Shown here piece by piece: positions 1,463-52,932 of a DNA stretch of 64,000 nt. Numbering within the stretch: position 1 is the stretch's first letter; every line of letters starts with the position of its first letter. The DNA lies in contig CAWVRY010000004.1 of NCBI GenBank assembly GCA_963932695.1, positions 10,954-74,953 of the forward strand, written 5' to 3'. The notes under the pieces were generated by a model, which did not search any database, was not told the origin of the DNA, and worked only from the letters and a program-made list of their open reading frames with translations. The position numbers were made by a program, and so were the translations under genes. The DNA comes from an uncultured bacterium. GTDB lineage: Bacteria; Chloroflexota; Dehalococcoidia; Lucifugimonadales; Lucifugimonadaceae.

Positions 1463-4162
1463 CTATTCGTCTTCTCCTTTGATCTGCGCTTGAAGCCTGA
1501 ACAACGTATTGATCGCCTCGATTGGCGTCATATTGGCTACATCAAGCTCTTTCAGTTCATCGACAAGTTCACTACTCACCTGTTGATCCCCGAGTGGCAT
1601 CTGTAGCTGGAACCCTGCTGGTCTTTGGATAGCTTTGGCACCGTTTTCCAATTCGTCGAGAAGATCCCATGCACGACTGACTACTGCCCCCGGCATTCCG
1701 GCCAATCTCGCAACGTGGACTCCGTACGAACGGTCGGCTCCCCCCGGAACTATCTGGTGCAGGAATACAACTTCGCCCGCCTCTTCGGCGACTGCAACTC
1801 GTAAGTTGTGCGCTCGTGGCAGTTGATCGGCTAACTCCGTCATCTCGTGATAATGAGTAGCAAATAGGGTTTTACAGCCCAATTTAGGCGAATTGTGAAT
1901 ATGCTCGGCGACAGAGCGAGCTATTGCCAATCCGTCGTAGGTAGACGTTCCACGACCGATTTCGTCGAGTACAGCTAAAGAACGACTCGTAGCCTGATTC
2001 AATATCGAAGCAGTTTCGACCATCTCGACCATGAAAGTCGATTGACCACCGGAAATATCGTCGGAGAGGCCAGCACGAGTGAATATGCGGTCCACAACAC
2101 CGATTCTTGCCTTCGTGGCTGGTATGTAGCTTCCAACCTGTGCCATGAGCACCAGCACCGCGGCTTGTCGAATGTAAGTCGACTTACCCGACATGTTGGG
2201 CCCGGTAATGATCATCACTTGCCGTTCATTGTTCGAAAGATCGAGATCGTTCGACACAAACCGACCAGGACCTAGCGATGATTCAACAACTGGATGACGT
2301 CCGCCCTCGATTTCGAGAGCCGTATCATCGTCGACGAGTGGCCGAACCCAACCGTTCTCGGCGGCAGCCTGCGACATTGAGACCAACGCATCGAGAACGC
2401 CAAGCGAACTGGCGGTCTCCATGATTCTGCCGCCATGAGCTGCGACTTCTCCGCAAACGCGTCGGAATATTTCACGTTCTAACTCGCTGATCCGATCACG
2501 GGCGTTAAGAATCTTTGACTCAAGCTCTTTGAGCTGTGGAGTGATGAACCGTTCTCCGTTCACAAGGGTCTGACGCCGTTCGAACGATTCTGGAACCAGA
2601 TGAACATTGTTCTTTGTGACTTCGAGGTAGTAACCGAACACGCGGTTGTAGCCGATTTTCAGGCTTTTGATTCCGGTGGTTTCTCGATGATCGGCTTCGA
2701 GAGCGGCAATACTCGACCGGGCGTCGCCCGAAAGCGACCTGACCTCGTCTAGATCGGAATGAAATCCTTCACGGATTGCCGATCCTTCCCCAACCGTGAC
2801 CGAAGGATCGTCTGGGATCGCAGCATTGAGCAGCTCAACGGCTTCAGATGACGAGTGAAGCCGCCCTATTACCGATCCGCCAGGAACAACACCATCTGGC
2901 AATGATGCGATCAGTTGAGGAATCACAACTAGCCCTGCTCGTAGAGAAGCTAGATCACGAGGTGTGGCCGTGTTGGTTCTCACACGGTTTGTTAGACGTT
3001 CGAGATCAGACACCTGACCCAGTAGACCCTGAACTCGCGAACGGGCGCTCTGGTCGCCAACAAAAGCAGCAATAACTTCTTGCCGCCGCTGTACGTCATC
3101 AGGTTTGAGCAGCGGGCGAGTCAACCAAGCCCGCAGAGTTCGGGCTCCCATGGCTGTTTTCGAGAAATTTAATGTTCGGTAGAGAGTAGGCGCAGAGGTC
3201 TTGCCGATCGACGAGGTGAAGACTTCAAGGTCTCTCAGCGCCTTCTGGTCGAGCTTCATATACGAATTGGTCGACTCTGTGCGCAGAGAAGTCAGTTGCG
3301 GAATCGCCCCGAATTGCGTGTCAGCTACGAAATCGAGGACCGATGAGGCTGCGATAATCGCCAGGGGCATGTTCTCGCACCCGAACGCTTCCAACGTTTT
3401 TACTTTGAAATGTTCGAGCAAGCGAGCCGCAGATAGATCGGTATCGAGTAGCGTTTCATCTAGTGGACGAAACACCATGCTGGATTCTTGATCGGAATTT
3501 ATTAGTTCGAGCGATTGCGAATCAGCGATCAATTCCGCTGGTGAAAGGCGAAATAGTTCATCTTTAAGATCGGCAACGGGAAATTCCCCAGTGACAAATT
3601 CGCTTGTCGAGATATCGACGTACGCCAGTCCCGCTCGTTCGCCATCGGACACGGCAGCTGCAAGATAGTTATTCGTCGATTGATCTAAAAGTGCCGGTTC
3701 GATCACGGTTCCAGGAGTGACGACCCGTACTACGGCACGTTCGACTAATCCTTTTGATTTCGCGGGGTCGCTTGTCTGCTCGGCAATCGCGATCTTGAGA
3801 CCAGCGGCAACGAGTGTTCCAAGATGGTTATCGAGCGAGTGATGCGGAATTCCAGCGAGTGGAGCTTTGCCGCCAGCGCCAGATTCCCGTGCTGTGAGCG
3901 TGATGCCAAGGACTTTAGACAGCGTGCGGGCGTCTTCATCAAAGGCTTCGTAAAAATCGCCCATCCTAATCAGCAATAGTGAATCAGGATAAGCCGTTTT
4001 GAATTCAAGAAACTGGCGTCGCCCCGGCGACAGTTTCTTTCCAGCCGCTACCTTCTTTTTAGGCACCGTTACACGAGACCCGACTTCACTAGTGGGTTCT
4101 ACCGTAACTTCGGACGGGACTGTTTTTTCTTCTGAACTGGCAGTGTCGGAATATGCTGACAT
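1463..4162 (-). CDS. mutS: DNA mismatch repair protein MutS
   Basis: 899 aa. N-terminal mismatch-binding block (FYEAFDEDA), Walker A GPNMSGKST, STFMVEM, and DEIGRGTSTYDG(L)AIA. Confidence 0.95.
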   Translation of the reverse strand: MSAYSDTASSEEKTVPSEVTVEPTSEVGSRVTVPKKKVAAGKKLSPGRRQFLEFKTAYPDSLLLIRMGDFYEAFDEDARTLSKVLGITLTARESGAGGKAPLAGIPHHSLDNHLGTLVAAGLKIAIAEQTSDPAKSKGLVERAVVRVVTPGTVIEPALLDQSTNNYLAAAVSDGERAGLAYVDISTSEFVTGEFPVADLKDELFRLSPAELIADSQSLELINSDQESSMVFRPLDETLLDTDLSAARLLEHFKVKTLEAFGCENMPLAIIAASSVLDFVADTQFGAIPQLTSLRTESTNSYMKLDQKALRDLEVFTSSIGKTSAPTLYRTLNFSKTAMGARTLRAWLTRPLLKPDDVQRRQEVIAAFVGDQSARSRVQGLLGQVSDLERLTNRVRTNTATPRDLASLRAGLVVIPQLIASLPDGVVPGGSVIGRLHSSSEAVELLNAAIPDDPSVTVGEGSAIREGFHSDLDEVRSLSGDARSSIAALEADHRETTGIKSLKIGYNRVFGYYLEVTKNNVHLVPESFERRQTLVNGERFITPQLKELESKILNARDRISELEREIFRRVCGEVAAHGGRIMETASSLGVLDALVSMSQAAAENGWVRPLVDDDTALEIEGGRHPVVESSLGPGRFVSNDLDLSNNERQVMIITGPNMSGKSTYIRQAAVLVLMAQVGSYIPATKARIGVVDRIFTRAGLSDDISGGQSTFMVEMVETASILNQATSRSLAVLDEIGRGTSTYDGLAIARSVAEHIHNSPKLGCKTLFATHYHEMTELADQLPRAHNLRVAVAEEAGEVVFLHQIVPGGADRSYGVHVARLAGMPGAVVSRAWDLLDELENGAKAIQRPAGFQLQMPLGDQQVSSELVDELKELDVANMTPIEAINTLFRLQAQIKGEDE

Positions 4163-32438: not shown

Positions 32439-33775
32439 ACGACCGGTACCTTTTCCTTATTTGCCGTGGTGATGGCCGAAGATGAAACCAACTCCGACTC
32501 TAGAGACCACGGTGAACTATCAGTTATTTCAACTTGAACAGTTTGCCCTGGCTGAGGCTCGGGCATGCTGCCTTCGACTCGGGCGTTTAAGTAGATTAGT
32601 TTATCGCCTCTGCTACGACCGTGCACCCTGCCCCGCTTGCGACCTTCGATAAGTACATCGAACTGAGTTCCAACTAAAAGAGCGTTATTTCTGGCCTGAA
32701 CTACCTGTTGAAACTCGTCGACAACGACTTTTCTCGCCTTCTTCACTGACCTCGTAACGTCGTCGTTCATCTTACGAGATGCGAACGTACCTTCACGATA
32801 TGAGTATTCAGACGTGTGAACCTTCGAAAATTCAACGGATCGAAGAACATCCATTGAACCCTCAAACTGAGCATCAGTTTCGCCACTGAAGCCAACAATG
32901 AGATCGGTGGTTAATGTGACGTTGGGGATAATGTCTTTGATCTGGGCAATTTTGTCGAGGAACTGTCCGATCGTGTATCCCCTCCGCATGTTCGCCAGCA
33001 TCGTGTCGTCTCCTGCTTGGAACGGCAGGTTGACCATCTCGCAAACCTTTGGAAGATCTCGAATCGCTTCGATTATTCGCAACGACATATCGTTCGGGTG
33101 CGAAGTCATAAACCTGATTCGTTCGAGACCGTTGATTTCATGAACCTTCTCGAACAAATCGGCTAGATCGATTCGTGGCCGAATGTCGTGACCATACGAA
33201 TCAACGTTCTGGCCGAGCAGAGTGATGTCTTTTACGCCACGGTCAACCATCATCTCGGCGTCATGAACGATATCGGCAGCCGATCGACTGGTTTCTCGTC
33301 CTCGGCGATAAGGGATGATGCAGAAAGTACAGAATTTGTCGCAGCCGTGAACAATAGGGATGAAGGAAGCTACGTTAGGATTTTCAGGAATTGCTCCAGC
33401 AAGGCATCCTTCAGGATCTAGCCCGTGCTTCATGCCAGCAGTTTCGAGGATTGGCTCGAATTCCTGAGGTCGTGCCCAAACATCAACATACGGGAAGCGG
33501 CGCTTCAGTTCTGTTTGCTCTGGACCAACCATGCAACCCATCACAGCGATCATACGATCGTCGTTGCCCTTTGTTCGCTTACCGAGGCGCCCCAACACGC
33601 CTGTTGCAGAGTCTTCGGCAGACTGCCGAACTACACAAGTGTTCAACACAACCACATCGGCGTTCGCCATGTCGTCGGTCGAATCGAATCCCATATTTGA
33701 GAATCCGCTGGACAGACGATCAGAATCAGATGTATTCATCTGACAACCAACGGTCCATACGTGATAGCTAGGCAT
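32435..33775 (-). CDS. miaB: tRNA-2-methylthio-N6-dimethylallyladenosine synthase (radical SAM methylthiotransferase)
   Basis: 446 aa. N-terminal VWTVGCQMN, radical-SAM CDKFCTFCIIP, and a C-terminal TRAM-like region. Its stop overlaps the nadA start (ATGA). Confidence 0.9.
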   Translation of the reverse strand: MPSYHVWTVGCQMNTSDSDRLSSGFSNMGFDSTDDMANADVVVLNTCVVRQSAEDSATGVLGRLGKRTKGNDDRMIAVMGCMVGPEQTELKRRFPYVDVWARPQEFEPILETAGMKHGLDPEGCLAGAIPENPNVASFIPIVHGCDKFCTFCIIPYRRGRETSRSAADIVHDAEMMVDRGVKDITLLGQNVDSYGHDIRPRIDLADLFEKVHEINGLERIRFMTSHPNDMSLRIIEAIRDLPKVCEMVNLPFQAGDDTMLANMRRGYTIGQFLDKIAQIKDIIPNVTLTTDLIVGFSGETDAQFEGSMDVLRSVEFSKVHTSEYSYREGTFASRKMNDDVTRSVKKARKVVVDEFQQVVQARNNALLVGTQFDVLIEGRKRGRVHGRSRGDKLIYLNARVEGSMPEPQPGQTVQVEITDSSPWSLESELVSSSAITTANKEKVPVV

Positions 33776-34041
33776 TATTTAGGCTGTTAGGGTGGTCGAT
33801 ATTCTGACTATTGGCTTTTGTGCCCGACCAGCAAGAGTTCGACTTTGTGATTTATTAATTCAACGGTAGACGGATAAGGATATCTCTACTACCGACCACA
33901 CACAAAGCGCGAAGTTAAAATACCCGGTGGAGGGTATCATCTATTGGCGATATCGACCTAGCAGCGCGAGCGGTTTCTACTAGATATCACGAACGTAGCG
34001 AATAACTTCCAAACAGAGCAGCGAGAGGAGTAGCTGAACCA

Positions 34042-48525: not shown

Positions 48526-49446
48526 GTTGGAAATCGAGTTGACGATGGTTTTTTCGAGTTTGAGTCCACCCCACTCTTCTGTACCGACCAGGTCGGTACG
48601 AACTTGAGTCAGAATTTCCTTGTCTGGTTGACGTTCTTCATCCCGTCTACGAACAGGCTTGCCACGAACCGGTGTGCGATCTGATCGCAGTGCAGCTGGT
48701 GCTTTAGCCTCTTCACGGGTTTCGCTGTACTCAGGTTTTGCGTAGCGATCTTCGTTCCTAGATCGTCGTGGTGTACGTTCTGATGCAAATGAATTTGGCG
48801 ACTCGCTTCTCGGCCGACGCGCTGGTCGGTCGTCACGTCTCTCACGGAATTCTTCCCGCGGCGACCTGTCGTCCTGACTTCGATCGCCACCACGGTTGTC
48901 TCGGCGGCTATCACTCTTAGAACGCGTTGGACGGGAGTCTGTATTACGATTTTGTCGCCCATCTATGACAGGACGTGAATCTACATTTCGGCCGAGGCGT
49001 GGAGCATCTGAACGTTGTTTATCGCGTTGCTCGGATGAATGTGATTCGGGTTCACCATTACGTCGAGCACGATTGCTTGGGCGTCTTCCGCCACGGCTGC
49101 TGTCTCGATCGTCACGATCGCGCCGATCGTTGTCACGCGAGTTGGCACGTCGAGGACCTCGGTCATCGTTGCGTGTTTCACTTCGACGGTCCGAGCTTTC
49201 GCCGGAGCTTCGATTCGATTTACGAGAGGGTTCTGATTCCCGGCGTGACCCTGATTGGGAGTCGACAGAGCGGGAGCGGGTAGATTCTTCGGAATTTGGA
49301 GTGCGGTTAGCGGCTGTACGATTGCTAGTTCGTGAGTTCGATTCAGCTGATGCCGAATCGTCGTTCTTGTTGCCGCCACCGATGAGACTTTTCAGTCGGC
49401 CTAGAGTGCCCAGTGTTCTGGTGCCCTTCTGATGGTAGGAGTGGTT
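48526..49446 (-). other. In-frame, stop-free 307-codon Arg/Asp/Ser/Asn-rich extension upstream of the helicase core, with no ATG/GTG/TTG
   Basis: My manual translation in the helicase frame from the TGA at 49447-49449 begins NHSYHQKGTRTLGTLGRLKSLIGGGNKNDDS. It continues through SRDNDRRDRDDRDSSRGGRR and RERRDDRPARRPRSES. It ends ...KEILTQVRTDLVGTEEWGGLKLEKTIVNSISN-MGYESPSEIQ. The last ~20 residues are the conserved aromatic/Q-motif lead-in. The coding strand is very T-poor. Confidence 0.5.
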
Positions 49447-49585
49447 TCAGTAAGTATTTTTGAATTGCTTACTTCTAGTGTACTTCTTGATTAAGCGTTT
49501 CTGACAATCAACTTCGATTCAGCTTTCGATTCGATCAAACTCCGTTCAGCCGCAAACAGGTTGTTAAGTCAGGTTTTTCTATAGT

Positions 49586-50788
49586 GTGGCTTTCATGAGC
49601 ACAGTCAACGCCAGCACTCCGGTCAACGATGCAACTTCGCCGCAGCGATCTTCGTTTAAGCAATGGATCGACGCCTATCGTGACAATTGGATCAAGTATT
49701 CAACAGCATCAGTTCTAGTATTGTTCGTTGTAATTGCGATTGGTTTACTTACCGGAAGCGCTCTGGGATTAATCGTTGTTTGTGCAATTATAACCGCCGG
49801 TTCTGTCGGCATTCATGTGTATTTGTCTAATCGGCTTCGAGTGGTCAGTAACGAACTCGATGAAGCCGAAGACCGACTGGCAAACGAGGCTAGTTCAAGC
49901 AGAATCCTTAATGGCATTCGCACGTTTCGGGCAAACAACTCACTCAGTCAGGATGCCCGACTTGCGACCGCGGCTCGCATGGCAACGGAGTATCCGGCTG
50001 CGATCGTGTTCAATTTACGAGACGCTCATGGAGTGCTTGCCCCTTCCAACTGGAGCTATGATGGCCAGCTATCACACATACGAGATCAGTTCGAGACGCT
50101 CGATGGTGATGATCCAGGAGCGATAGCGGCTCGACAGGGATCGGCGATCGTAATTTCAAATACCGACGCACGCGCCGAAACGCTGCCGGCTTGGGCAGAG
50201 CATGCCGGTTTCTCTCAAGGAATCGTGGCACCGATCAGCCGTGGGCTCGACACTATCGGCGTGATCTATGTGTTAAACAAGTCGGGCAAACTTCCCACGC
50301 TGAACGAAATTGAGCAGCTTGAGCTGATCGTCAGTTTTAATTCACATGGTGCTCTAGCATCCGGTCGTGAGACCGCACCCGGTCCAACTCAGCCGTTCCG
50401 AGTTGTAGAGAAACCTAGCACGTCGAGTCTGGGTGATTCACCTGCTGCCACTCATCCGATTCGCATGGAAGGGTTCGCACTGAATCCTGAGTCGGGAAGA
50501 ATGGAGATGGACGGCATCTTGATTTCCTTATCTCCAACCGAGTTCCTGTTGATGCACGCACTGGCTTCGTCACCCGATAAGCCGGTTTCGCCCGAAGTGC
50601 TTATGAGCAACTGCTGGTCGAAGAATTCTCGACCTGCCGACAACGCTGTCGATGTCGCTATATTCCGCTTACGCAAGAAGTTGAACAAGACGGCGTCAGG
50701 CGAAGGACTTATCAAGACGGTTCGAGGCAGCGGCTACATGTTCATCCCACCGGCTTCGACCACTGCATCGCCCGTAGTCGCCGACTAA
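49586..50788 (+). CDS. Membrane-anchored one-component regulator: 2 TM, a GAF-like domain, and a C-terminal OmpR/PhoB-type winged helix
   Basis: 400 aa (GTG 49586, or ATG 49595). TM helices around VLVLFVVIAIGLL / LIVVCAIITAGSVGI. GAF-like end block GVIYVLNKSG...LNEIEQLELIVSF. C-terminal trans_reg_C pattern LSPTEFLLMHALA...VDVAIFRLRKKL...IKTVRGSGYMF. Confidence 0.75.
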   Translation: MAFMSTVNASTPVNDATSPQRSSFKQWIDAYRDNWIKYSTASVLVLFVVIAIGLLTGSALGLIVVCAIITAGSVGIHVYLSNRLRVVSNELDEAEDRLANEASSSRILNGIRTFRANNSLSQDARLATAARMATEYPAAIVFNLRDAHGVLAPSNWSYDGQLSHIRDQFETLDGDDPGAIAARQGSAIVISNTDARAETLPAWAEHAGFSQGIVAPISRGLDTIGVIYVLNKSGKLPTLNEIEQLELIVSFNSHGALASGRETAPGPTQPFRVVEKPSTSSLGDSPAATHPIRMEGFALNPESGRMEMDGILISLSPTEFLLMHALASSPDKPVSPEVLMSNCWSKNSRPADNAVDVAIFRLRKKLNKTASGEGLIKTVRGSGYMFIPPASTTASPVVAD

Positions 50789-50827
50789 ATATTCAGGTCT
50801 TAACCCAAACTCTCATCGCTTAAAAGT

Positions 50828-50861
50828 TAACGCCGCACCGAAGGCGTTGGGTGCGACGTTA
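50828..50861. terminator. Hairpin between convergent genes (possible bidirectional terminator)
   Basis: TAACGCCGCACC-gaaggcgttg-GGTGCGACGTTA, a 12-bp stem with one mismatch. No clear U-tract on either side. Confidence 0.4.
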
Positions 50862-50927
50862 CGCCAACCGGCCTTACGACCGGGTCCGCTATATGTAGCC
50901 GTTGTGTGTGGCAACGACCATCAAAAA

Positions 50928-51989
50928 TTAACCGGTAGGTAGAAGAACCGGACCTCGTGTGCGACGAGGTGCTGGTGTATCGAAAACCGACACCACCGGA
51001 TCTATCGCCACTTCACGTCGTATTGGAATGATCGGAGTGAACATGTCTTCACTACTTTGCTCAGTACCGATTCCAGCCAGAACTATCGTCACATTGATCT
51101 CTTTGCCCATCCCGATCAAGCGTTCACTCGACACGTGAATAATCGCACTCATGCCTATTTCATCACGCACTTTGTCGACAGCATCAGCAACCTGCCCAAG
51201 CGACAGTCCAATGCCGCCCACGACGTGTGCAACAACTGATCGAGCACATACGAATTCTCTCGAAGTGGAAGCAAAGGCTTTATCGACAGCCCTGCTCCCT
51301 GCGTGAAGCCCAGTAGAAGCTCCCGAAATAACGGCTGACTCGCCAGCATTGGTTAGCGAATCCTGCACTGAGATAGCCCGCTCAGGTGAAAATTCGAGTG
51401 CGAGCGTAACTGCATTTACCGCGGCTGCGATATTCTTGTCGGCTTTCACAAAGGCATCGTTCAACGATCCACCCATCGCACCACCAGTCAGTAAATCATC
51501 GTTGCACATCATCATCACGGTATCAGCAGAGGATTTTAGAAGTTCATGTGCACGGGCGGCAGATTGGTTTCGAAAACGACCTTCAAACTCGAACGGCATG
51601 TTCACAGCCGCAATGGTCAACGCACCCGATTTTCGTGTGATTCGGGCAATCTCTGGTGCAAGCCCTGAGCCTGTGCCCCGGCCTAGACCAGCAAGTAGGA
51701 TCACCACGTCGGCGCCGTAGATGAAGTCGACCACCTTTGATTCATATTTGCTGAACAAATCAACTGCGGTTTCTGGATTACCACCGGTACCAAAGCCGTT
51801 TCCGATTGCCAAAGTTTCCACGCGCTCGTTTAGATGTCCTGCCGCAGATCCAGTGTCGATACCTAGCATGCGTACGTTATTCGAAACGGTATCGGTCAAT
51901 CGATTCAATGAGGAACATCCAGCTCCGCCGATACCGATAATTTTGACTTCAACGCTGGCTGCTCTGGGCAACTCTTTTAACTTCATCAT
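50928..51989 (-). CDS. Divergent FtsZ/tubulin-family GTPase (FtsZ paralog-like)
   Basis: 353 aa. KIIGIGGAGCSSLNRL, GFGTGGNPE, ILLAGLGRGTGSGLAPEIA (variant of GGGTGTG), LTIAAVNMPFEFEGRFR, and LNDAF.KAD. It aligns by eye along E. coli FtsZ residues ~10-320. Confidence 0.85.
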   Translation of the reverse strand: MMKLKELPRAASVEVKIIGIGGAGCSSLNRLTDTVSNNVRMLGIDTGSAAGHLNERVETLAIGNGFGTGGNPETAVDLFSKYESKVVDFIYGADVVILLAGLGRGTGSGLAPEIARITRKSGALTIAAVNMPFEFEGRFRNQSAARAHELLKSSADTVMMMCNDDLLTGGAMGGSLNDAFVKADKNIAAAVNAVTLALEFSPERAISVQDSLTNAGESAVISGASTGLHAGSRAVDKAFASTSREFVCARSVVAHVVGGIGLSLGQVADAVDKVRDEIGMSAIIHVSSERLIGMGKEINVTIVLAGIGTEQSSEDMFTPIIPIRREVAIDPVVSVFDTPAPRRTRGPVLLPTG

Positions 51990-52294
51990 CCGAACCCTGC
52001 CTTATCTGCATTTGGCAGAGATCAATTAGTTGTTCCCATCGCTGCCGTCAACACAAATTAGCACACTCGTTCTACTATTTGAAAGCCTTTCAGAACACTT
52101 ATTCGGAACACCCGTGCTAATTCACCTGTTTGCAGGTAAGAAAGCTGTTTGCATAGGGGTTCGAGTGGTTTTCGGTGATGATCTGATTTCAGCGAGAATC
52201 ACAGATTTCCATGCCCACTTCTATCGAACTTCCATTCAATTTATCAGCGTTCACAAGTTTCAAGAACGGAAACAAAACCGAGCTGACCTACTAA

Positions 52295-52932
52295 CTAAAA
52301 TGGGCAGCTTGGAAGTGGTTGCGGGAAGTCGCTGAGCACCAGATTATCGGATATGAAGTCCGACTTGAAGGTCTGTTCGGCAGAATTGCTTACGTGGTAA
52401 GTCTCGGGCCTGAAAACAGGGTGTTTCTTATCGAAGTGAAGTCAAGCCGTACTGATCTGAATCGTGATGACGACAACGAGCGTACCCACGAGAAATTGCG
52501 AAAAAAGAAAAGTCGCTGCACGCGGCGGCAGAACTAACGAACAGTGTTTTAGCAACTGCGAAAGCGTCGGTCAGGGCTAAACCCAACAGCGACTAGGATC
52601 GTGCGGTCGCAATTGCTGAATCGAATGCGACGAAAATCATGACCACGTCCGCATCAACTAAAAAGCGTATCGATACTCTGTCGACCAAGTTCCACGATCG
52701 GTCATATTTGATATGCGCCGACTATCACTACATCATGGCTCCACACCGGATGATCCGCACTACTGAGCTTCACGACCAATGGGGATTGCTTAATAAACGA
52801 GTCGAGGCGGTCGTAGAAGCGCCACTAAAGCAAGTGAAGCGAGTAACTCAACATGTGCGGCGAGCAATTTCTCGTGCGAACACACGTGAATTAATGAAGG
52901 CGTGCGAAGTCGACGTTCAGCGAACGAAATGA
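52295..52932 (+). pseudogene. Fragmented PD-(D/E)XK nuclease-like gene (MmcB/VRR-NUC-like), tentative
   Basis: Frame 1 reads ...GYEVRLEGLFGRIAYVVSLGPENRVFLIEVKSSRTDLNRD... to a stop at 52535-37. After a 1-nt shift near the A-run at 52500-52511, a second frame runs through an in-frame TAG (52594-96) into ...YLICADYHYIMAPHRMI...HDQWGLL... Confidence 0.35.

Follow-up and report, generated by a model that had tools for sequence, protein, structure and literature searches.

A third FtsZ paralog without the T7 loop, under predicted LexA control, as a possible division brake in a marine Dehalococcoidia genus

By combining alignments, structure prediction, comparative genomics and operator searches, we characterise here FtsZl, a divergent FtsZ-family gene (50928..51989, minus strand; 353 amino acids, start ATG) in a 64,000-nucleotide stretch, the window, from the genome of an uncultured bacterium of the Lucifugimonadaceae (Chloroflexota, Dehalococcoidia). 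We are close to certain that FtsZl is the third FtsZ paralog of its genome, that it has lost the T7 catalytic loop and that it is under selection. The FtsZ fold and a derived C-terminal peptide are kept. Its promoter carries the box found before recA and lexA, and the gene is probably a member of the SOS regulon. Its role is proposed more tentatively: we put at roughly 0.45 the probability that FtsZl is a LexA-controlled, non-hydrolysing FtsZ derivative that would block division after DNA damage, by capping FtsZ filaments, by competing through its tail, or by both.

A third FtsZ paralog that has lost the T7 loop

Among the branches of the tubulin superfamily, only FtsZ models and structures match FtsZl. 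The Pfam Tubulin/FtsZ GTPase domain is recognised at residues 14-167 with 81.2 bits (cut-off 33), and the C-domain, whose FtsZ_C score of 22.1 bits lies under the cut-off of 27, adopts the FtsZ fold in an AlphaFold2 (AF2) model. The sole NCBIfam match is ftsZ (TIGR00065), at 149 bits against a cut-off of 295.2, about half, so that the equivalog level is not reached; all 49 matches of a PDB sequence search were named FtsZ by their depositors, the best being S. aureus FtsZ at 133 bits. The Pfam search gave no match to SulA (PF03846).

An earlier note on the window, made from its letters, had read three nucleotide-binding strings in this protein (GIGGAG, GTGGNPE and LTIAAVNMPFEFEG) and had claimed departures from canonical FtsZ at the tubulin signature and the T7 synergy loop, and our analysis bears out each of these. 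All three strings are found, GIGGAG at residues 19-24. The signature GGGTG(T/S)G is not matched; in its place alignments put GRGTGSG at residues 103-109, within the T4 variant GLGRGTGSG (51663..51689, minus strand; residues 101-109) where canonical FtsZ has GMGGGTGTG. The Arg of this variant, R104, is conserved across the FtsZl family, being invariant in 20 sequences from the genus and nearly invariant in 69 metagenome sequences.

At the position of the T7 motif N-x-D-x-x-D, FtsZl reads AISVQDSL; the Asn and both Asp are gone, and three residues (I-N-L) are deleted. A MAFFT alignment with canonical FtsZ, a HMMER alignment with S. aureus FtsZ and the AF2 model agree in placing SPERAISVQDSL opposite PGxINLDFADV, and the loop remnant with the start of helix H8, SPERAISVQDSLTN (51351..51392, minus strand; residues 200-213), keeps 0 of 6 canonical columns. 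The model (69-sequence alignment; predicted local distance difference test, pLDDT, 79.0; predicted template modelling score, pTM, 0.76), a check that the note had suggested for this region, joins H7 (176-199) to H8 (202-212) by a turn of two residues and contains a disordered stretch at 311-334. Compared with the PDB by Foldseek, it retrieved FtsZ alone among the matches listed, over about 308 aligned columns, and the top two matches were the engineered delta-T7 S. aureus FtsZ structures 3wgk and 3wgl (E ~4e-31; target-normalised template modelling score, TM, ~0.85), their lead over other FtsZ entries being small. We predict that FtsZl, its T7 loop lost, is a non-hydrolysing FtsZ derivative.

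The rest of the protein was compared by columns, using 17 FtsZl sequences of the genus (two hyper-divergent ones, from genomes G417 and G424, left out) and 29 canonical FtsZ, and requiring the same majority residue. Of the columns with at least 90% conservation in canonical FtsZ, FtsZl keeps 37/54 in the GTPase domain, 4/6 in H7, 0/6 in T7 (where three are deleted) and 7/20 in the C-domain. By this measure conservation is highest in the nucleotide-binding "top" half; nothing is left of the catalytic loop, and the "bottom" half has been remodelled. The GTP pocket (T1, T3, T5 and T6 loops and the guanine contacts of H7) is largely kept in most species of the genus; in the copies of G417 (L091, 8650-9717) and G424 (L093, 2680-3765) the T1 GGxG loop is lost (AVGSP..ANR), as is much of T3.

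The source genome, G000 (2.17 Mb in 113 contigs, 91% complete, 1.2% contaminated), contains three genes with a Tubulin domain, FtsZl and two canonical FtsZ. ZA (G000:C3, L001, 1450-2562, plus strand; 370 amino acids) directly follows a gene with FtsA and SHS2_FTSA domains, and ZB (G000:C7, L002, 892-2031, minus strand; 379 amino acids) stands alone elsewhere in the genome. They score 161 and 158 bits for Tubulin and 110 and 116 bits for FtsZ_C, respectively, and in both the GMGGGTGTG signature, the T7 sequence NLDFADV and a PPFLRHH tail are intact; being only 73% identical, they are paralogs rather than strain variants. A search of the genome for a canonical ftsZ had been proposed in the earlier note, which left two possibilities, an FtsZ-like paralog with a non-canonical role or a highly derived sole FtsZ. 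The presence of ZA and ZB rules out the latter and, together with the loss of T7 from FtsZl, upholds the former; the combination that the note had named as contradicting it, an intact T7 loop in the only copy of the genome, is not what we find. In the wider family, the ZA and ZB sub-clades both occur in genera g1, g198, g202 and g203, two copies are also present in g2 and g5, and the other genera have one canonical FtsZ; a dual FtsZ in a wall-less bacterial lineage is reminiscent of archaeal FtsZ1/FtsZ2.

FtsZl ends in a conserved peptide, FDTPAPRRTRGPVLLPTG (50931..50984, minus strand; residues 336-353), that is homologous to the C-terminal partner-binding peptide of FtsZ. The ending quoted earlier, ..TPAPRRTRGPVLLPTG, is indeed present, but the accompanying statement that a partner-binding peptide is lacking goes too far, as a derived and strongly constrained terminal peptide is found: the family-conserved tail (RGPVLLPTG) aligns with the canonical peptide (D/E-I/L-P-x-F-L-R type), GPVLLP against PPFLR, and is preceded by a disordered linker, as in canonical FtsZ. 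Genome G410 has, in place of FtsZl, a 42-residue open reading frame (ORF; L092, G410:C57, ~2940-3175, minus strand) ending ..LDTPWPVRRRGPMLLPVS, which retains the tail peptide alone and lies ~89 nucleotides behind the promoter box described below as box 1; this is a single metagenome-assembled genome (MAG), in which an assembly artefact is possible. A search for short, C-terminal-only forms returned only 3 fragments of 60-74 amino acids, which share 87-91% identity with the query and include at least one labelled partial; they give no support for a recurrence of the tail-only form.

FtsZl has evolved rapidly. The tree path from G000 to G397 measures 1.07 substitutions per site for FtsZl and 0.012 for ZA, and by path lengths its evolution is ~20- to 90-fold faster than that of the canonical copies. 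Compared with the flanks, FtsZl evolves ~10 times faster. Nei-Gojobori estimates from unsaturated pairs (dS 0.14-0.9) give dN/dS values of 0.16-0.34 for FtsZl, 0.13-0.28 for the adjacent regulator gene and 0.02-0.09 for five flanking genes. In dS, FtsZl and the regulator resemble the flanks; what they have in excess is therefore non-synonymous change, and on the same ground we rejected an exchange of older alleles as a cassette. Pooled over five non-overlapping pairs, regional dN/dS of FtsZl is lowest in the tail (336-353; 0.12), intermediate in the GTPase domain (0.19), the C-domain (0.19) and H7 (0.25), and highest in the T7 remnant (0.40) and the linker (0.42). Even the most divergent pair, G417/G424, has values of 0.08-0.14 in the two domains, still purifying. 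The ORF starts used for G400, G401, G403, G417 and G419 were over-extended upstream, which touches unaligned N-termini only. The FtsZl gene is under purifying selection and functional. A phage-defence or decoy role, prompted by the fast evolution, was dropped, as the PADLOC anti-phage defence models matched 0 families in FtsZl, the regulator or the neighbouring MmcB-like protein.

The third copy is narrowly distributed. In a collection of 5.8 billion proteins its distinct relatives (P0001-P0073) range from 741 to 157 bits and from 99% to 35% identity; those that are named come from MAGs of marine Chloroflexi/Dehalococcoidia, and the next matches (at most 132 bits) are ordinary FtsZ. An exhaustive search of 1.84 billion representatives is concordant, with about a dozen sequences above 190 bits followed by generic FtsZ. 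Among 28 genus-mates in GTDB, 25 match FtsZl at 190-624 bits without internal stops and two more, G417 and G424, have a hyper-divergent copy at the same locus (Pfam Tubulin 37.7 bits), so that 27 of 28 possess an intact ORF; the third negative is G410 with its remnant. With FtsZl as query, none of 123 genomes from the family's other 18 genera exceeded 126 bits, and in a class-wide sample of 300 genomes no score rose above 125 bits; this sample includes G244, flagged unpublished, which gives a canonical-level match only and on which no other claim rests. Recognisable FtsZl orthologs (35-86% identity) are confined to its own genus. Thirteen seawater-metagenome DNA runs contain at least 92% of the sampled words of the stretch.

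In a quick IQ-TREE analysis (58 rows, with no bona fide CetZ, TubZ or FtsZl-1/2 sequences among them), the family's canonical FtsZ form one clade (SH-like approximate likelihood ratio test, SH-aLRT, 99) with ZA and ZB as sub-clades. The FtsZl clade of the genus (SH-aLRT 99) has a stem 1.75 substitutions per site long and groups with other third copies outside the canonical clade, a placement in which long branches are involved. With four long-branch rows taken out, an approximately unbiased (AU) test did not reject a tree uniting all family sequences and P0129 (p-AU 0.36). An AU test that left P0129, a likely third-copy member, outside the constrained group gave p = 0.0003 and was discarded as mis-specified.

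Promoter boxes and predicted LexA control

Alignment of the intergenic region between FtsZl and the divergent MmcB-like gene from 10 genomes of the genus (omitting the 1,425-nucleotide region of G397) reveals a conserved element of ~110 nucleotides amid diverged sequence. Two predicted LexA (SOS) boxes lie between the genes, both of the form GAAC-N4-GTGCTAA and inverted in orientation. Box 1, GAACGAGTGTGCTAA (52058..52072, minus strand), faces FtsZl, 69 nucleotides before its ATG, and box 2, GAACACCCGTGCTAA (52106..52120, plus strand), faces the MmcB-like gene, ~91 nucleotides before its ATG; a weaker GAAC-N4-ATTC box (52093-52104) lies near box 2. The same motif stands 70 nucleotides upstream of the recA ORF (TAGAACACTTGTGCTAAT) and 55 nucleotides upstream of the lexA ORF (CAGAACATTAGTGCGAA), the latter identified by its LexA_DNA_bind and Peptidase_S24 domains, so that the box in the FtsZl promoter matches the recA and lexA operators of the same genome. 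GAAC-N4-GTTC is described as the LexA box of Bacillus, Mycobacterium and Gram-positives generally, and lexA, recA and the translesion-synthesis polymerases as the conserved core of the SOS regulon (PMC3323433). The box of the present lineage, AGAAC-N4-GTGCTAA, is asymmetric and may overlap a -10-like TAAT.

Across both strands of the 2.17-Mb genome, the strict pattern GAAC-N4-GTGC[TG]AA occurs at 8 sites, against ~0.5 expected by chance at base frequencies of 0.25: two at the FtsZl locus, one each at recA and lexA, one 103 nucleotides before a TatD DNase gene (C29:3943) and three inside ORFs. Within the window there are 2 matches against 0.12 expected, a number reached by 1 of 100 shuffles. 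In G397 and G417, too, the strict pattern stands just upstream of recA, lexA and the FtsZl locus, with totals of 10 and 5 sites, respectively, compared to 4 and 2 for a reversed-pattern control; in G396, a genome of the sister genus g203, it is not enriched (1 versus 2 for the control). A palindromic variant, AGAAC-N4-GTTC[TG]A, is found upstream of an IMS gene of the ImuB/Y-family polymerase type (site C18:32253, gene 32461-33888) and of a HAD hydrolase gene (C12:20588). From these sites we predict that the IMS/ImuB-like, TatD DNase and HAD hydrolase genes are further members of the LexA regulon. A gene for a 240-residue protein with no Pfam match (C11:13854-14576, plus strand) lies 37-55 nucleotides behind two overlapping palindromic boxes (C11:13785-13817) and is a candidate new SOS gene.

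The operator before FtsZl is conserved at every locus of the genus that was examined. Box 1 is present at 22 of 22 loci (14 of 19 directly, the other 5 after extension into over-called ORF starts, and 3 further loci), including those of the hyper-divergent copies in G417 and G424 and of the G410 remnant, and box 2 is detected by regular expression at 16 of 22. Box 1 is also kept in four genomes without the MmcB-like gene (G402, G403, G404 and G419), and FtsZl is the only gene that the boxes can serve there. Beyond the genus, the third copy has similar boxes upstream, one in g203 and two in g202. No Rfam family matched in a search of 50700-52400, which sets the conserved intergenic element apart from known RNAs. 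The sites that a consensus scan of 49300-52500 proposed (2 promoter-like, 3 terminator-like) are no more numerous than expected from shuffles and were not used. From the recA/lexA operator in its promoter we predict LexA repression of FtsZl and its induction upon DNA damage; membership in the SOS regulon, argued here from the sharing of this motif, seems probable to us.

Contigs from RNA libraries (4 libraries, 4 studies) match parts of the FtsZl gene at 95-100% identity, and 51506-52049 is spanned without mismatch. They lend weak support to transcription, as DNA carry-over is possible and the contigs show neither strand nor ends; coverage gaps and the contig end at 52049, just downstream of box 1, were not used, since neither ends nor absence can be read from such contigs.

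The conserved locus and its neighbouring genes

The two neighbours of FtsZl are as the earlier note had described them, a convergent membrane-anchored regulator and a broken nuclease-like gene. The regulator (49586..50788, plus strand; 400 amino acids) combines a GAF domain (GAF_2, 29.2 bits) with an OmpR-type winged helix-turn-helix (wHTH; Trans_reg_C, 73.5 bits) and has a hydrophobic hairpin at about residues 38-80. Among its orthologs the wHTH (DVAIFRLRKKL..IKTVRGSGYMF), the GAF core and a terminal ..AD are conserved, and the N-terminal membrane hairpin and the GAF-wHTH linker are variable. On the other side, divergent from FtsZl, lies an MmcB-like PD-(D/E)XK nuclease pseudogene (52211..52932, plus strand) with two in-frame stops and one frameshift in an A-run. 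Most relatives have an intact ORF of ~230 amino acids at this position, although frameshifts also occur in G423 and the gene is missing from four genomes of the genus; the Pfam match to MmcB is weak (17-21 bits, cut-off 22).

Gene order is conserved at 19 of 19 loci of the genus: an epimerase, a DEAD-box helicase (minus), the GAF/wHTH regulator (plus), FtsZl (minus) and the MmcB-like nuclease (plus), followed by an aminotransferase (minus), an aldolase and a methyltransferase, with the provisos that two of the 19 contigs end right after the paralog and that G402, G403, G404 and G419 are without the MmcB-like gene. The sister genus g203 (G396) has the same order of epimerase, helicase, regulator, FtsZ copy and MmcB-like gene. 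In g5 and g202 a very divergent third copy adjoins the MmcB-like gene and the regulator is not there, and g198 has the regulator and neither the third copy nor the MmcB-like gene; adjacency of the third copy to the MmcB-like gene is thereby conserved in four genera. The positional ortholog in g203 looks canonical (Tubulin 149 bits, FtsZ_C 63.7 bits, GMGGGTGTG, NLDFADL, terminal GGVLMSMG) and has in common with FtsZl the derived strings VNMPFEFEG and L(S/T)LGQV.DAV. It is named "cell division protein FtsZ" at NCBI, and its next relative is just 47% identical.

Regulator and FtsZl, adjoining at all 19 loci, also diverge in step. Their pairwise distances correlate with r = 0.96 (partial r 0.91 given flank distance; 0 of 2000 permutations), compared with 0.56 for a control flank gene, as computed from 18 of 20 genomes, two having no aminotransferase on the contig, and with helicase distances above 0.5 dropped as wrong paralogs. 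The correlation is suggestive only, since it overstates independence: adjacent genes have a common history of recombination, and the genomes are related. A complex prediction with regulator residues 90-400 and FtsZl scored 0.01 against a mark of 0.32, which speaks neither for nor against binding. In Caulobacter, a transcription factor bound to the membrane, HigX, is reported to be linked with the SOS response (PMC13384398), and we draw no homology to it.

A possible division brake among known systems

SEDS genes (FtsW/RodA/SpoVE) and SulA are found in 0 of 29 genomes of the genus, and SepF and MinC were not found in G000, a wording we prefer to "absent" given its 91% completeness. This pattern fits published accounts of gene loss, in which SAR202 and Dehalococcoidales are described as being without the wall-synthesis genes of the division and cell wall (dcw) cluster and ftsW/ftsI, with ftsA and ftsZ retained (PMC10608941, PMC11994032); judging by habitat and gene content, the genus is presumably part of the SAR202 group. 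With the SEDS and wall-synthesis targets of other SOS inhibitors absent from the genus, FtsZ or FtsA remain as the available target, and FtsA is the only known membrane receptor of the FtsZ tail that was found.

We propose that FtsZl would be repressed by LexA, accumulate after DNA damage and stop division in either or both of two modes. Its top face may add to the growing, T7-exposing end of ZA/ZB filaments, and the dead bottom face exposed in this way would then form a sub-stoichiometric cap. In FtsZ filaments, new subunits are described as joining where the C-terminal interface lies exposed, and capping of that interface as a known mode of inhibition (PMC9897490). Growth would end once a subunit had joined whose top face is good and whose bottom face is dead and remodelled, which matches the pattern of column conservation. 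The tail peptide may also compete for the membrane tether of FtsZ, for which FtsA is the candidate receptor, and the G410 remnant, in keeping the tail alone, points to such competition as a second and possibly sufficient mode. FtsZl would work like SulA, YneA or SidA, a functional analogue made from FtsZ itself and not a member of any of their families. A historical account is slightly more speculative: wall loss may have removed the usual checkpoint targets, and an FtsZ duplicate may have become a LexA-repressed, T7-less "poison subunit" whose tail also competes for the anchor. With the same reserve, the third copy as a checkpoint effector may display a graded series, from a complete SOS-linked FtsZ through T7-dead forms and forms without a GTP site to a 42-residue tail-only peptide.

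Several observations weigh against a division brake. We draw the link to DNA damage from motif sharing only, three of the 8 strict sites fall within ORFs, and in genus g5 no box was detected by regular expression before the third copy. Where it is present, the divergent MmcB-like repair gene could be what the boxes primarily serve. The G396 ortholog has an intact T7 loop and GGGTGTG behind a similar box, so a dead T7 was not needed for the ancestral SOS-linked role, and the loss of the T1 GTP loop in G417 and G424 weakens nucleotide-dependent capping in those species. The co-evolution of FtsZl with the regulator is also left unexplained by such a brake.

Some of these same observations suit a different role under the same control. 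FtsZl might be a damage-specific, non-hydrolysing isoform rather than an inhibitor, which would co-assemble with ZA/ZB or form stable GTP-locked filaments. While repair is under way, such filaments could lend stability to the division site, the membrane or the nucleoid, perhaps jointly with the MmcB-like nuclease. The operator evidence serves this idea equally well, and the complete, T7-intact FtsZ of the sister genus, the adjacency to the MmcB-like gene kept in four genera and the GTP pocket retained in most members all favour it. We nevertheless consider it rather unlikely, since the MmcB-like gene can be dispensed with (it is a pseudogene here and missing from four genomes of the genus, all of which keep FtsZl), the bottom face that homopolymers require is the least conserved domain (7/20 columns), the T1 loop is lost in some members and the G410 remnant consists of the tail only. 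FtsZl may, conversely, stand outside the SOS response altogether, the boxes belonging to the MmcB-like gene or to a shared promoter element, and co-evolve with the GAF/wHTH regulator in a signalling or membrane-remodelling task. The regulator is adjacent and convergent at 19/19 loci of the genus and in g203, dN/dS is raised in both genes (0.13-0.34), and their distances correlate as described above; against this stand the retention of box 1 where MmcB is absent, the inflation of the correlation by shared recombination history and kinship, and a pairing that is not universal, as in g5 the paralog occurs without the regulator, in g202 a regulator homolog lies at a distance of ~790 kb, and of the two genes g198 has the regulator alone. 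We regard this possibility as unlikely.

That FtsZl is a decaying duplicate, heading for loss and with no present function, would account for its very fast divergence (the G000-G397 path above), for the progressive loss of motifs within one genus and for the near-deletion of the gene in G410. Such decay is highly improbable in view of an ORF intact in 27/28 genus-mates, dN/dS well below 1 in every pair, including G417/G424, a constrained tail peptide (0.12) and an operator conserved at 22/22 loci. We give still less credence to a horizontal acquisition of FtsZl as a CetZ-like protein, or another tubulin-superfamily member outside FtsZ, with a role in cell shape. The position of the third-copy lineage outside the family's canonical clade in IQ-TREE would agree with such an origin, as would a survey that reports sparse CetZ-like sequences in Chloroflexota-Dehalococcoidia (PMC9871819). 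Yet ftsZ is the only NCBIfam match and FtsZ the name of all 49 PDB matches, the g203 positional ortholog is a bona fide FtsZ by its FtsZ_C score and shares derived strings with FtsZl, and the tree that keeps the family sequences together is not rejected.

The predicted LexA control is the new element in this picture, by which an orphan FtsZ-like gene becomes a candidate FtsZ-derived effector of a DNA-damage checkpoint. Bacterial FtsZ paralogs are rare and mostly unexplained; our literature searches found nothing on paralogs for FtsZ in SAR202, none for Chloroflexi, and, among the matches listed, no SOS-induced or LexA-box-controlled FtsZ homolog. If the division brake is real, a naturally selected, damage-controlled and hydrolysis-dead FtsZ would constitute a new class of checkpoint effector, a natural probe for filament-end capping and tail-peptide competition, and a first handle on cell-cycle control in abundant, hardly cultivable ocean bacteria. 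The graded natural series would lend itself to studying the transition from enzyme to pseudoenzyme regulator.

With canonical FtsZ, FtsZl has in common the two-domain fold (TM ~0.85 to target), largely kept nucleotide loops, and a linker with a terminal peptide; in contrast, it is without T7, has an Arg in the signature, a remodelled C-domain and half the equivalog cut-off, and does not lie beside ftsA. It resembles the engineered delta-T7/bottom-face FtsZ mutants (3wgk/3wgl) in combining an intact top face with a defective bottom face, but occurs naturally, is under selection and has a promoter and a tail peptide of its own, and capping by FtsZl is a proposal. Bottom-face mutants of FtsZ are toxic at low dose. 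In plants, the degenerate FtsZ-like domain of ARC3 is a negative regulator of chloroplast FtsZ rings, the same concept as proposed here for FtsZl, in a protein that differs in being eukaryotic, fused to other domains and otherwise regulated. The Nitrosopumilus maritimus protein Nmar_1262 is described as an FtsZ homolog without the conserved T7 and with an altered GTP signature that does not polymerise (PMC3684127). It parallels FtsZl in both the missing loop and the altered signature; unlike FtsZl, which coexists with two working FtsZ, it is archaeal and the only FtsZ-like gene of a host that divides by Cdv, and no SOS link is known for it. A further comparison is with the SOS division inhibitors SulA, YneA, SidA, SosA and DdrR, which are described as delaying division during repair and as being, apart from SulA, unrelated lineage-specific small proteins. 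FtsZl is like them in its predicted LexA control, its restriction to a single lineage and its fast evolution, and differs from them in having no sequence or fold relation to any. The non-SulA types act on late wall-synthesis proteins of the divisome, YneA for example being reported to act on FtsW (PMC13396833), whereas FtsZl, if an inhibitor, would be a duplicate of the very protein that it targets.

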